The notes: a model not told the origin generated them from the sequence alone. DNA of 32,000 nt from Bdellovibrionales bacterium (GCA_965247685.1 OZ252021.1:270001-302000); one strand, 5' to 3'. Positions 1 to 14,428 are shown, counted from the stretch's first letter. Translations and numbers: made by a program.

Positions 1-1046
1 TATCCCATACTTGCTGCTCTTTCATAGTAGGAAATCGCTTTTTCACGATCTCGCTCAACCCCTTCCCCATTATCATACATAGCTCCTACATTATAAGGAG
101 CAAGTAGGTGATTCATATTTGCTGCTCTTTCAAAGTAGGAAACCGCTTTTTTAAAATCTTTCTTAACTCCTTTTCCGTAATAATACATCTCTCCTAAATT
201 AAAAAGAGCAATTGGGTGATTCAATTCTGCTCCCTTGGACAAATAACGAACAATATCATCCGTTGAAAAAAGAAAGTTCTCTAAGAGACCACGTGGAAAA
301 TGAAAAAATGTTCCCTCTTTTTTTGGAATTAAATAATTAGAATCTAGTAGCTGATTAATCAATTTTTTTGCCTTTAAAATCTCATAATCAATACATTTTC
401 TTGGTTGATTTCCACACACTGTTCCTATATGATTGTATAAAAGTTCTTGCAAATAAGATGACAAAATACTCATTACATAAGATTCAGAAGCGGAATAAAG
501 TATACCTAGAAGACTGCCTTTTGAATCGAGCAATGGGCCACCACTCATTCCTTCAACATTTTCTACAAAACCAAGTTCAAAAAATGCTCCATAATAAACA
601 TTCTCCATTATGTTAATCTCTCTTACACTTCTTATAGTTACAGGTTTTCTCATCTTCCTTGGGTAACCAATTGTAAACCCTCCCTCATGAAATAAACTCT
701 TCTCCCCTTCTGATAAATAAATATCCGACTTTTGTTCTGTCCGGAAGATAGCTAGATCAGCGTAGACGGAAATAGATACTAATTTTTTAACTTTTATAGA
801 AGGTTTATCATCACGATCTAAAGAAATGTCTTTTATATCTTTAATCCCATTAATGACATGAAAATTAGTCACGAACAGATCAGGTGCTATAAAAAATCCA
901 GTGCCATTAACATATCCATCGTCTATTACAACTTTATAAGTAGCTTGTTCGGCTTTTAAAACTCCTTCTGGAAGATCAGAGGCGTAGGAGTAGGCTCCTA
1001 ATAACAAATAGGTATAAACTATCAAATATAGTAGGAAGATTCTCAT
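1..1046 (-). CDS. Secreted trypsin-like serine protease / Sel1-like repeat fusion protein, array paralog 1 (partial, 3' end beyond left window edge)
   Basis: Absent from the ORF track because no stop codon lies in the window. Manual translation from the ATG (reverse complement of 1044-1046) is uninterrupted down to position 1: MRIFLLYLIVYTYLLLGAYSYASDLPEGVLKAEQATYKVVIDDGYVNGTGFFIAPDLFVTNFHVING...YADLAIFRTE...EGMSGGPLLDSKGSLLGIL...VCGNQPRKCIDYE...LSKGAELNHPIALFNLGEMYYYGKGVKKDFKKAVSYFERAANMNH...GEGVERDREKAISYYERAASMG. Two SLR cores are visible before the edge. Confidence 0.85.
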   Translation of the reverse strand, partial: MRIFLLYLIVYTYLLLGAYSYASDLPEGVLKAEQATYKVVIDDGYVNGTGFFIAPDLFVTNFHVINGIKDIKDISLDRDDKPSIKVKKLVSISVYADLAIFRTEQKSDIYLSEGEKSLFHEGGFTIGYPRKMRKPVTIRSVREINIMENVYYGAFFELGFVENVEGMSGGPLLDSKGSLLGILYSASESYVMSILSSYLQELLYNHIGTVCGNQPRKCIDYEILKAKKLINQLLDSNYLIPKKEGTFFHFPRGLLENFLFSTDDIVRYLSKGAELNHPIALFNLGEMYYYGKGVKKDFKKAVSYFERAANMNHLLAPYNVGAMYDNGEGVERDREKAISYYERAASMG

Positions 1047-1259
1047 AATAAACCCTTTTTAACATTTTGAGGGGGTTGCTCAACAAAAACTCTTTTACTA
1101 TATAAAATGATAACCTTGTCTACAAGTCTTGACCTGTCAAGATGTTTAAAAATAACTAAGAAGAGTAGAAGGATAATCACTCCTGCAAAAAACTTTTATT
1201 AGGATCAATTTAAAAACTTTGGATTAGGATAGTTCCTTCATAATCTCTCCATTAATTCC
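1047..1259 (-). promoter_or_regulatory. Array spacer / 5' leader of paralog 1 (divergent patchwork variant)
   Basis: The first ~60 nt upstream of the ATG match the leader consensus. Candidate promoter on the minus strand: TTGAGC (1078-1083), 16-nt spacer, TGn-TAAAAA (-10 at 1056-1061). The rest of the spacer is a rearranged mix of the two spacer types. Confidence 0.4.
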
Positions 1260-2411
1260 CTACCTGAAGAAATCACTTTTTTTAAACTTCACCCTTTCTC
1301 CTCTATGATCCATAGCTTCTAAAGAAAAGAGAGCAAGTGGATAACCCATACTGGCTGCTCTTTCATAGTAGGAAACCGCTTTTTTATGGTCTTTCTTAAC
1401 CCCTTTCCCCTCATGGTACATAACTCCTAAATCAAAAAGAGCCTCTGAGAGATTCATCTTTGCTGCTCCTTCATAATAGGAGATTGCTTTTTCACTATCT
1501 TGCTCGACTCCTTTCCCCACATGGTACATCGATCCTAAATGAAAAAGAGCAATTGGGTGATTCAATTCTGCGCCCTTGGACAAATAACGAACAATATCAT
1601 CTGTTGAAACAAAAAATCTCTCAAAGGTTTCTATTGGAAGATGAAAAAATGTTCTCTCTTTTTTTGGAATTAAATAATTAGAATCTAATTGCTGAGTGAT
1701 CAGTTTTTTTACCTTTTGAATCTCTTGATCAATACATTTTCTTGGCTGATTTTCACACACTGTTCCTATATGATTATCTAAAAGTTCTTGCAAATAAGAT
1801 GACCAAACACTCTTTCCAAAATTAAAACCAAAAGTAGCAGAAAATATGCCCAGAAGATTGCCTTTCGAATCGAGCAATGGGCCACCACTCATTCCTCCAA
1901 TATCTCCTATAACAGGGAGTTTAAAAGATACTGCATAATAAACATTCTCCATTATTTTAATCTCTCCTACACTTCTTATAGTTACAGGTTTCCTCATCTT
2001 CCTTGGGTAACCAATTGCAAACACTCCCTCATGAAATAAGCTCTTCTCCCCTTCTGATAAATAAATATCCGAGTTTTGTTCTGTCTGCAAGATAGCTAGA
2101 TCAGCGTAAGCGGAAACAGATACTAATTTTTTAACTTTTACAGAAGGTTTATCATCACGATCTAAAAAAATAGATTCTACATTTTTAATCTGATCAATGG
2201 CATGAAAATTAGTCACGAACAGATCAGGTGCTATAAAAAATCCAGTGCCAGTGGTGCTATAAAAATATCTCTTATTTTCATCAAACATAAGTATAACTTG
2301 ATAAGTAGCTTGTTCGGCTTTTAAAACTCCTGCTGGAAGATTGGAGGCGTAGGAGTAAGCTCCTAATAGCAAATAGGTGTAAACTATCAAATATAGTAAG
2401 AAGATTCTCAT
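1260..2411 (-). CDS. Secreted trypsin-like serine protease / Sel1-like repeat fusion protein, array paralog 2
   Basis: 383-aa ORF. Signal peptide MRIFLLYLIVYTYLLLGAYSYA/SN. Triad motifs TNFHAI (His), YADLAIL (Asp), GMSGGPLLDSKGNLLGI (Ser). VCENQPRKC linker. Two full SLR cores (GKGVEQD, GKGVKKD) plus a degenerate terminal one. The tail is out of frame relative to the homologous tails of paralogs 5 and 9. Confidence 0.9.
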   Translation of the reverse strand: MRIFLLYLIVYTYLLLGAYSYASNLPAGVLKAEQATYQVILMFDENKRYFYSTTGTGFFIAPDLFVTNFHAIDQIKNVESIFLDRDDKPSVKVKKLVSVSAYADLAILQTEQNSDIYLSEGEKSLFHEGVFAIGYPRKMRKPVTIRSVGEIKIMENVYYAVSFKLPVIGDIGGMSGGPLLDSKGNLLGIFSATFGFNFGKSVWSSYLQELLDNHIGTVCENQPRKCIDQEIQKVKKLITQQLDSNYLIPKKERTFFHLPIETFERFFVSTDDIVRYLSKGAELNHPIALFHLGSMYHVGKGVEQDSEKAISYYEGAAKMNLSEALFDLGVMYHEGKGVKKDHKKAVSYYERAASMGYPLALFSLEAMDHRGERVKFKKSDFFR

Positions 2412-12956: not shown

Positions 12957-14237
12957 TTAGGGAAATCTCTGCATTAATCTCCTACATGAGGAAATCACTT
13001 TTCTTAAAACTCGCTTAACCCTTCCTCCTCTATGAGCTATAACTTCTTTTAAAGCAAAGGGAGCAATTGGGTGACCCATCTTTGCTGCTCTTTCATAGTA
13101 GGAAATCGCTTTTCCAAAATCTTGCTCAACCCCTTCTCCTCCGAAATAATACATCTCTCCTAACTTAAAAAGAGCATCTGAGTCACCCATATTTGCTACT
13201 CTTTCATAGTAGAAAGCTGCTTTTTCACGATCTCGCTCAACCCCTTTTCCTCTAAAATACATAACTCCTACATTATAAATGGCAGTTGGGTGATTCATCT
13301 TTGCTGCTCTTTCATAGTAGGAAAACGCTTTTTCAACATCTTGCTCAACCCCTTCTCCTTTAGAATACATCACTCCTAAAACAAAGAGAGCAATTGGGTG
13401 ATTCAATTCTACTCCCTTGGACAAATAACGAACAGTATCTTCTTTTGAAACAAGAAAGCCCTCTAAGAGACCAAGTGGAAGATGAAAAAATGTGCTATCT
13501 TTTTCTGGAATTAAATAATCAGAATCTAGTTGATTAGTAATCAGTTTTTTTGCTTTAAAAATCTCATGATCAATACATTTTCTTGGCTGATTTTCACACA
13601 CTGTTCCTATATCATTGTATAAAAGTTCTTGCAAATAAGATGACAAAATACTCATTACATAAGGTTTCCTAGAGGAATAAAGTATACCTAGAAGATTACC
13701 TTTCGAATCGAGCAATGGGCTGCCACTCATTCCTCCAACATCTTCTACAAAACCAAATTCAAAAAATGCTCCATAATAAACATTCTCCATTATGTTAATC
13801 TCTCCTACACTTCTTATAGTTACAGATTTTCTCATCTTCCTTGGGTAACCAATTACAAACACTCCCTCATGAAATAAACTCTTCTCCCCTTCTGATAAAT
13901 AAATATTCGACTTTTGTTCTGTCTGTAAGATAGCTAGATCAGCGTAGACGGAAACAGATAATAATTTTTTAACTTCTATAGAAGATTTATCATCACGAAC
14001 TAAAGAAATGTCTTTTATATCTTTAATCCTATTAATGACATGAAAATTAGTCACGAACCGATAAGGTGCTATAAAAAATCCAGTGCCATAACCATATCCA
14101 CCGTCTATATCCACTACAACTTTATAAGTAGCTTGTTCGGCTTTTAAAACTCCTTCTGGAAGATCAGAGGCGTAGGAGTAAGCCCCTACTAATAATGAGT
14201 AGGTATAAACTATCAAATATAGTAAGAAGATTCTCAT
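12957..14237 (-). CDS. Secreted trypsin-like serine protease / Sel1-like repeat fusion protein, array paralog 9 (promoter-proximal end of array)
   Basis: 426-aa ORF. TNFHVI, YADLAIL and GMSGSPLLDSKGNLLGI motifs. VCENQPRKC linker. Three SLR cores plus a degenerate terminal one. Tail VISSCRRLMQRFP is related to paralog 5. Confidence 0.9.
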   Translation of the reverse strand: MRIFLLYLIVYTYSLLVGAYSYASDLPEGVLKAEQATYKVVVDIDGGYGYGTGFFIAPYRFVTNFHVINRIKDIKDISLVRDDKSSIEVKKLLSVSVYADLAILQTEQKSNIYLSEGEKSLFHEGVFVIGYPRKMRKSVTIRSVGEINIMENVYYGAFFEFGFVEDVGGMSGSPLLDSKGNLLGILYSSRKPYVMSILSSYLQELLYNDIGTVCENQPRKCIDHEIFKAKKLITNQLDSDYLIPEKDSTFFHLPLGLLEGFLVSKEDTVRYLSKGVELNHPIALFVLGVMYSKGEGVEQDVEKAFSYYERAAKMNHPTAIYNVGVMYFRGKGVERDREKAAFYYERVANMGDSDALFKLGEMYYFGGEGVEQDFGKAISYYERAAKMGHPIAPFALKEVIAHRGGRVKRVLRKVISSCRRLMQRFP

Positions 14238-14428
14238 AATAAACCCTTTTTAACATTTTAAGGGGATTTTCTCAATAAAAACTCTTTTACTGTATAAAAA
14301 TTACAATGAACTCTAAAACTGGAATAAGAATAGCAGAAGGACAATCACTCTTGCGAAAAACTCTTAGAAAAACTCTTATTAGGATCAATTAATTAGCAGC
14401 AATTATCACTGAGATAAAAGTGAATTAA
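14238..14428 (-). promoter_or_regulatory. Array leader of paralog 9 and right-hand boundary of the array
   Basis: Matches the type A leader up to gtgaattaa (ends 14428), after which homology is lost. Candidate promoter TTGAGA (14270-14275), 17 nt, TGn-TAAAAA (14247-14252). Carries a perfect 12-nt tandem duplication, gaaaaactctta x2, at 14355-14378. Confidence 0.5.

Follow-up and report, generated by a model that had tools for sequence, protein, structure and literature searches.

The spl genes of Staphylococcus aureus are transcribed as one operon. The six S1 paralogs that they encode in tandem are secreted, and are reported to complement one another in substrate specificity and to contribute to virulence (PMC7926377, PMC8765433). 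Here we describe an array of nine tandem genes, each encoding a trypsin-like protease fused to Sel1 repeats, that occupies positions 1-14428 of a 32,000-nucleotide stretch of DNA from a Bdellovibrionales bacterium (GCA_965247685.1 OZ252021.1:270001-302000), hereafter the window, and for which the spl operon may be regarded, by analogy, as the closest described system by way of working. Both are tandem sets of paralogous chymotrypsin-fold serine proteases with signal peptides; however, the Spl proteins (SplA-F, S1B) are single-domain proteins of a Gram-positive pathogen, have no Sel1 arm and show only marginal sequence likeness to the array proteins (SplD, E 1e-3), and it is solely from the variable loops that differences in specificity of the spl kind are suggested for the array.

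Two further groups of known proteins share features with the fusion. HtrA, DegP, DegQ and DegS (S1C) share with the array an exported trypsin fold followed by a C-terminal protein-binding module, and they are among the best matches in fold and in sequence, but HtrA proteases bear PDZ domains, are conserved and occur in single or few copies, whereas the array proteins have no PDZ domain, are lineage-specific and evolve fast. Helicobacter Hcp, Legionella LpnE and EnhC, Escherichia coli EsiB and the eukaryotic SEL1L/Hrd3 share the 36-residue alpha/alpha repeat and, unlike the array proteins, have no protease domain in the chain. SEL1L/Hrd3 is the substrate-recruiting scaffold of a degradation machine.

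Results

Nine genes in a head-to-tail array

Nine consecutive genes of the same type lie head-to-tail in window 1-14428, all on the minus strand. That they are same-strand paralogs with one architecture, as the original prediction from the sequence had proposed, is confirmed by open reading frames (ORFs), Pfam matches and motifs in all nine copies. The genes (lengths in amino acids, aa), preceded by the upstream unit of the first, are as follows:

14238..14428, minus strand: conserved unit ahead of g1, putatively a promoter and a leader that includes the ribosome-binding site (RBS); the same block stands before every copy
12957..14237, minus strand: g1, the array's first gene; 426 aa, 3 Sel1 units and a degenerate cap
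11672..12676, minus strand: g2, the shortest, 334 aa; 1 Sel1 unit and a half cap; modelled as the short paralog
9906..11453, minus strand: g3, 515 aa; 6 Sel1 units and a cap; terminator-like hairpin at 9868-9882 after the gene
8143..9687, minus strand: g4, 514 aa; 6 Sel1 units and a cap; terminator-like hairpin at 8105-8119 after the gene
5897..7924, minus strand: g5, the longest, 675 aa; 10 Sel1 units and a degenerate eleventh
4140..5687, minus strand: g6, 515 aa; 6 Sel1 units and a cap; terminator-like hairpin at 4102-4116 after the gene
2461..3921, minus strand: g7, 486 aa; 5 Sel1 units; usual C-terminal cap and stop lost
1260..2411, minus strand: g8, 383 aa; 2 Sel1 units and a degenerate tail
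1..1046, minus strand: g9, truncated by the window edge; ATG at 1044-1046; at least 2 Sel1 units in the window

The G+C content of the array is 0.34, equal to that of its flanks. Position 14428, given earlier as the end of the array, is where the conserved unit upstream of g1 starts; the ATG of g9 lies at 1044-1046 and not at 1043. At full length (514 aa) g9 corresponds to P0006, which is encoded on the same 1,280,446-bp contig and starts with the translation of g9 found in the window. A search of 5.8 billion proteins returned eight proteins of more than 70% identity from the source contig, namely seven of the complete window genes and P0006, with g5 as the ninth copy, and it returned no further paralog above this identity from that contig. 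Because P0006 is g9 and no other such paralog was returned, g9 is most likely the last gene of the array, which would end about 0.5 kb past the window. The expectation that the array extends beyond the window was thus right for the rest of g9, but most likely not for additional paralogs above 70% identity.

A 137-aa ORF on the plus strand (window 6227-6640) runs antisense to the Sel1 repeats of g5 and would encode a product that is repetitive too; most likely this ORF arises from the repeat and is no gene.

Diversifying selection in the loops around the active site

The protease domain is under diversifying selection, with the fastest change in the loops flanking the catalytic residues, while the catalytic triad and the oxyanion motif are under purifying selection. 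We measured the ratio of nonsynonymous to synonymous substitution rates (dN/dS) with the Nei-Gojobori method, pooled over all 36 paralog pairs. For the mature protease domain the ratio is 1.58 (codon-bootstrap 95% interval 1.10-2.33), and dN exceeds dS in 34 of the 36 pairs. Within this domain, five loop segments reach 3.0 and the remainder stays at 0.49, and the stretches that hold the Asp and Ser motifs are at 0.1-0.4. The signal peptide has a ratio of 0.13 and the first half of the linker one of 0.43. Furthermore, housekeeping orthologs compared with those of a close relative (L012) by the same script give values of 0.05-0.11.

The five segments, in which amino-acid variation of the protease is concentrated, are alignment columns 41-56, 72-90, 137-143, 150-174 and 191-206. 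Judged by their position relative to the predicted strands and to the modelled H71, D105 and S175 of g2, they would correspond to loops LA, LB, LD, L3/L1 and L2, respectively. In the chymotrypsin fold, these loops build the substrate-binding cleft and the S1 pocket. The residues directly before the catalytic Ser vary in charge between copies (ENVE, GDIG, K-FR, GYFE and EDVS).

Recombination among copies and variation in Sel1 number

Recombination shuffles the copies and alters the number of Sel1 units. The closest paralog switches about every 90 nucleotides (nt) along a gene; g5, for instance, is 100% identical to g9 in one interval and 100% identical to g7 in another. The four-gamete test is failed by 58% of informative site pairs, and loop types are combined differently from gene to gene. 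The Sel1 region has a period of 108 nt, and its units, which number 3, 1, 6, 6, 10, 6, 5, 2 and at least 2 from g1 to g9 in addition to degenerate caps, look shuffled between genes as well. Since the sixth Sel1 unit of g5 is the penultimate unit of g3, g4 and g6, its sequence suggests that the 10-unit g5 arose by unequal crossing-over. In g7 (window 2412-2500) the frame runs 13 codons into the conserved intergenic block, and g8 starts 49 nt after the g7 stop.

Within the Sel1 unit, A7, G12, Y15, G18, D24, K27 and Y31 form an invariant framework, and positions 1, 4-6, 9, 10, 13, 16, 17 and 25 are variable, an indicative picture drawn from the 19 of about 40 units that were caught by a regular expression.

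A recent, lineage-specific amplification

The array is a recent and lineage-specific tandem amplification of one gene type. Synonymous divergence (dS) is about 1.1 between the window and its L012 orthologs and about 0.1 among the paralogs. Measured against the split from the nearest relative available, the array or its most recent homogenisation therefore has roughly a tenth of the age. The gene order mfd to methyltransferase is kept in two close relatives (L012 and L013), and in both of them a protease-Sel1 gene is absent from the syntenic site; past the methyltransferase there is a Trans_reg_C gene in each, and also a Lon protease in L013. Nearest homologues outside the source genome are 34-45% identical, the closest of them 40-45%.

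Protease-Sel1 genes do occur in relatives at other loci, as tandem sets of three (L009, L010, L014), a set of two (L011) or a single gene (L015), and the triad motifs are intact in 13 of 13 relatives examined. Among the loci examined, the nine-gene array is the largest. One of these relatives, L014, belongs to the same broad lineage, with an MnmA that is 73% identical and a nifS-mnmA-mtaB trio common to both.

In L014 (2474-3109 and 8001-12457) the three-gene protease-Sel1 array adjoins nifS, with ankyrin-repeat and Gp49-family genes near; the ankyrin repeats give a hint of a eukaryotic host. The source contig itself carries, outside the window, a protein of 1265 aa (P0191) with two protease-like domains in which catalytic residues are replaced: the first has LNGAP instead of G-x-S-G-x-P, and the second has TTFE instead of T-x-x-H and Asn for Asp. 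With its very long Sel1 region (342 bits), P0191 is a probable pseudoprotease of the same family.

As for the bearer, Der homologues that have names come from metagenome-assembled genomes (MAGs) of Bdellovibrionales or Bdellovibrionota at no more than 68% identity, and closer Der relatives (85%, 82% and 79%) lie on contigs of 1.16, 0.59 and 1.11 Mb. From these best hits, rather than from a phylogeny, we infer that the organism (1.28 Mb, 34% GC) belongs to a small-genome lineage whose nearest named relatives are Bdellovibrionota. We found no description of this reduced-genome lineage in the literature.

Domain architecture and predicted fold

All nine proteins match Pfam Trypsin_2 (PF13365; 45.6-58.2 bits against a cut-off of 27.6; E 1e-11 to 2e-15) and Sel1 (PF08238; 45.9-357.8 bits against a cut-off of 30.7; 1-10 stretches each). 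In g1 the E values are 5e-13 and 1e-33, respectively, and the triad is H66/D100/S171. Every copy contains FVT[NA][FL]H, YADLAI, GMSG[GS]PL and the linker [VM]C[GE]NQPRKC (Cys-x6-Cys), and across 25 family members the His-Asp-Ser order and the G-x-S-G-x-P oxyanion motif are invariant. The His motif, first described as TNxH, is present in all nine but reads T-[NA]-x-H, with Ala in four copies.

One short and one long paralog, g2 and g5, were modelled with AlphaFold2 from an alignment of 25-26 sequences. The models have a mean predicted local distance difference test (pLDDT) of 85.4 and a predicted template-modelling score (pTM) of 0.83 for g2, and values of 88.1 and 0.76 for g5. They predict a chymotrypsin fold, a helical linker and an alpha/alpha solenoid. 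The g2 model has a helix at residues 2-19 and then a stretch of low confidence; strands that make up a two-barrel chymotrypsin-fold domain span residues 37-203, and the Cys pair is followed by a long helix (223-243) and a short one, with Sel1 helix pairs from about residue 270. In the g5 model, about 20 regular helices of 12-13 residues, paired and with pLDDT above 90, form one continuous solenoid over residues 263-651.

When the g2 model was compared with the PDB by Foldseek, only the protease part was matched, namely to S. epidermidis Esp, S. aureus V8, DegP, HtrA1, DegS, DegQ and M. tuberculosis Rv3671c, with target TM-scores of 0.65-0.75 and a probability of 1.00 for Esp, DegP, HtrA1 and DegS. 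Esp and V8 head this list but tie with the S1C proteins, all at 15-22% identity. In sequence, the protease part has weak likeness to DegQ, RsgI9, HtrA, MucD, Rv3671c and SplA/D/E in the PDB (E 3e-6 to 9e-3), the phmmer matches to SplD and SplA being marginal (E 1e-3 each), and the best PDB sequence matches of the C-terminal part are the Sel1 structures 1ouv, 1klx, 4bwr, 6ok3 and 8kes. The assignment to S1 (clan PA) proteases with Sel1 repeats, made in the original prediction, therefore stands on Pfam scores above threshold in all nine copies, an intact triad, and Foldseek and PDB sequence matches.

No PDZ family is among the Pfam matches of any copy, TIGR02037 (HtrA/DegP) gives 36-38 bits against a cut-off of 416, and the scores of the HtrA, DegP, DegS and MarP models are about ten-fold under their cut-offs. 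Because PDZ is missing and the HtrA-type models stay so far below their cut-offs, the protein is a fusion of Sel1 to an S1 (clan PA) protease that falls outside the curated S1C subfamilies.

The segment between the two barrels, KSDIYLSEGEKSLFHE (g2 residues 112-131, for example window 12284-12343), is near-invariant in all copies, with dN/dS of 0.1-0.3. It is modelled without regular structure and with low confidence at residues 121-130, as a conserved loop.

Leader, upstream DNA and transcription signals

As the original prediction had stated, each gene has its own start and a conserved leader, and both the leader and an upstream AAGGG are found in all nine. The leader MRIFLLYL[IM]VYTY..LLGAYSYA, with one Arg, a 17-residue hydrophobic core, S-Y-A and no lipobox Cys, has the pattern expected of a Sec signal that would be cut by signal peptidase I. 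The proposal that the proteases are exported is likewise consistent with sequence features, namely the hydrophobic region followed by S-Y-A, the missing lipobox Cys and the linker Cys pair.

An alignment of the nine upstream regions shows that 130-220 nt of conserved DNA precede every copy, with AAGGG seven nt ahead of the ATG. A sigma-70 scan returned fewer promoter-like sites than in shuffled sequences and no shared match within the conserved upstream unit, and Rfam has no match in the window.

RNAalifold predicts a stem of 24 pairs (-11.6 kcal/mol) in window 14218-14330 and in the equivalent leaders, where the leader would pair with a stretch covering RBS, ATG and first codons; because the aligned sequences are too similar to show covariation, they speak neither for nor against this predicted structure.

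A widespread, already named fusion family

The array genes are members of a widespread, already named and uncharacterised Trypsin_2-Sel1 fusion family. We searched the protease and linker segment of g2 against 1.84 billion cluster representatives and obtained 2,144 proteins at E <=1e-3, 184 at <=1e-10 and 11 at <=1e-30. Among the best 90 of the 2,144 representatives, Trypsin_2 is present in 88 and Sel1 in 77, and the Cys pair is nearly invariant. The fusion is thus less new than the original prediction had taken it to be. NCBI already uses the name 'bifunctional trypsin-like peptidase domain-containing/SEL1-like repeat protein' (e.g. MBC6415269.1, MDE0151851.1), and named members (P0029, P0207) are matches of the window protein. 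The NCBI-named family has the same order as the array proteins (N-terminal Trypsin_2, Cys-pair linker, C-terminal Sel1), but most of its members are only 25-37% identical to them. A scan of genome contigs gave matches to the Sel1 part only, in unrelated phyla.

A Tryp-(Sel1)6 protein of Pelodictyon luteolum (YP_374752.1) was listed in a 2008 survey with its role given as unknown (PMC2605481). In the literature we found no characterised Trypsin_2-Sel1 member, and no report of a nine-gene array, a selection analysis or a function for any of them. The novelty first claimed for the locus accordingly holds in that no characterised member was found, but the architecture is widespread and named, and spl is a precedent for tandem batteries (PMC7926377).

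Neighbouring genes

Beyond the array, the window carries housekeeping genes: a DNA methyltransferase, purC, purM, der, rnc, mtaB, mnmA, a NifS-type desulfurase, mltG and mfd, the apparent 800 aa of Mfd being due to the window end. The N6/N4 DNA methyltransferase (window 14896-15732, plus strand; PF01555, E 2e-44) has no restriction enzyme gene adjoining it; its place is conserved in both close relatives, so that it has the look of a lineage-wide orphan methylase. Between it and the array lies an ORF of about 58 codons (14495-14671, minus strand), and small called ORFs (56 and 46 aa) are found there, by position, in L012 and L013. Neither Pfam nor NCBIfam gives a match for four ORFs of 179-527 aa (16555-17631, minus; 19611-20564, 20711-21250 and 27013-28596, plus); in L012 and L013, matched by position, similar-sized ORFs without a recorded Pfam match (one faint) occupy those four places.

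Discussion

We propose that the array is probably a recent, lineage-specific battery of Sec-exported S1 proteases with Sel1 arms that has diversified and is aimed at the proteins of another organism, a host or a prey. The most economical reading is that the targets lie outside the cell and are host or prey proteins or their protease inhibitors. In proposing this we infer that the proteins pass beyond the periplasm, that they are active and differ in specificity, what the Sel1 arm does and how the organism lives. Under this hypothesis, each copy would be transcribed from its own conserved upstream unit, exported by Sec and cut by signal peptidase I after S-Y-A. The protease domain, with its triad and oxyanion motif intact, is predicted to be active and would cleave proteins. 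The Sel1 solenoid, joined to it by a helical linker with a disulfide-type Cys-x6-Cys, may by analogy act as a docking or adaptor arm that delivers a partner or a substrate to the protease. Duplication, gene conversion and unequal crossing-over at the 108-nt repeat would yield new combinations, a process whose recombination signal is observed, and positive selection on LA, LB, LD, L3/L1 and L2, of which the signal is observed too, may then give each copy its own substrate preference. Hints at the lifestyle are the 1,280,446-bp source contig, the Der homologues named Bdellovibrionales and the ankyrin-repeat gene near the L014 array.

Several points weigh against this proposal. In a diderm, a Sec signal indicates export as far as the periplasm only, and the array has neither a secretion system nor a partner gene linked to it. 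The dN/dS of 3 in the loops is inflated, as these columns were picked for variability, a bias of which the whole-domain value and the internal contrasts are free; the paralog pairs are not independent, recombination blurs their history, and dN/dS comes from pairwise counts rather than from likelihood codon models. The loops are named by position relative to predicted strands and catalytic residues, not by three-dimensional distances. Finally, the Sel1 arm is given its role by analogy only, and a host- or prey-bound lifestyle would follow from the small genome and from MAG labels on hits of no more than 68% identity.

A bolder form of the hypothesis, which we put forward tentatively and to which we give well under even odds, is that the array generates protease diversity by recombination, in a Bdellovibrionota-like bacterium that has a reduced genome and depends obligately on a host or prey. 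Active-site loop cassettes and Sel1 arm lengths would be shuffled among nine expressed copies, so that docking targets and cleavage specificities are combined ever anew in an arms race with the proteins or protease inhibitors of the host or prey.

Of the alternatives, the one that survives best, although we consider it unlikely, is variation of surface or secreted antigens: the array would be a recombining reservoir in which exposed loops and repeat number shift to escape host recognition by antibody, lectin or protease inhibitor, with the substrate range essentially unchanged. Such escape would account for a dN/dS above 1 in exposed loops, for mosaic recombination and repeat-number variation, and for variable Sel1 positions interspersed between invariant framework positions. 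However, the nine ORFs are intact and each has its own conserved upstream unit, unlike silent cassettes; the variable segments are those adjoining the catalytic residues; and neither an invertase nor an expression-site structure is present. Escape from host protease inhibitors is compatible both with antigen variation and with the battery of exported proteases that we favour.

Somewhat less probable is a periplasmic housekeeping role in envelope quality control of the HtrA/DegP type, with Sel1 in place of PDZ and an amplification that has no adaptive meaning. The weak sequence likeness and clear fold likeness to DegQ, DegP, DegS and HtrA1 would fit such a role, and the Sec signal alone implies the periplasm only. 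That the battery is an arsenal rather than a housekeeping protease, as the original prediction had it, is nevertheless supported, because the proteins have no PDZ domain and score far below the DegP/HtrA family cut-offs, close relatives lack the array at the syntenic site, and the whole-domain dN/dS exceeds 1 compared with 0.05-0.11 in housekeeping genes. Furthermore, the nine copies fill about 1.2% of the 1.28-Mb genome.

We give slightly less credence again to the idea that these are decaying paralogs under relaxed constraint in a reduced genome, with the amino-acid excess reflecting neutral decay. The lost C-terminus of g7, the degenerate tail of g8 and the broken triad of P0191 in the same genome are what decay would leave; yet relaxed constraint predicts a dN/dS near 1 and not a bootstrap interval that starts at 1.10, the catalytic segments and the signal peptide are held at 0.1-0.4 and 0.13, and about 4,100 codons of the array contain no frameshift or internal stop.

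An assembly artefact, in which fewer real copies were expanded or mis-joined, is very improbable. The region is repetitive, with its 108-nt period and units whose protease parts are 85-95% identical, but no two units match exactly over more than 223 nt. Because the units differ throughout, each with its own combination of loop types and its own repeat number, collapse or artificial expansion is unlikely; the source is a single contig of 1.28 Mb, and independent evidence comes from related contigs of other samples, which carry arrays of 2-3.

Anti-phage effectors akin to the protease domains of RT-protease, Lamassu LmuA and Hachiman variants, suggested by PADLOC matches (RT-Protease_XI, E 2e-15; LmuA; HamA), are hardly credible, and we rejected them, as these matches are limited to the protease domain, no reverse transcriptase, LmuB or HamB partner is in the window, and all copies bear an export signal, unlike those defence proteins, whose site of action is the cytoplasm.

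Relative to the original prediction, what is new is the evolutionary signal, the architecture itself being already known. In this locus positive selection and gene conversion act together on a tandem effector array, which makes it a clean example from bacteria. It also sets nine recent natural variants side by side, in which the variable loops and the Sel1 surface positions probably set the choice of target, so that experiments on specificity are easy to design. If true, the bolder form of our hypothesis would provide the first function for the whole Trypsin_2-Sel1 family and would make the array the bacterial equivalent of the gene clusters that encode venom or granzyme proteases. For the organism, spending about 1.2% of a 1.28-Mb genome on one fast-evolving family of exported proteases suggests that this family has a central role in exploiting another cell.

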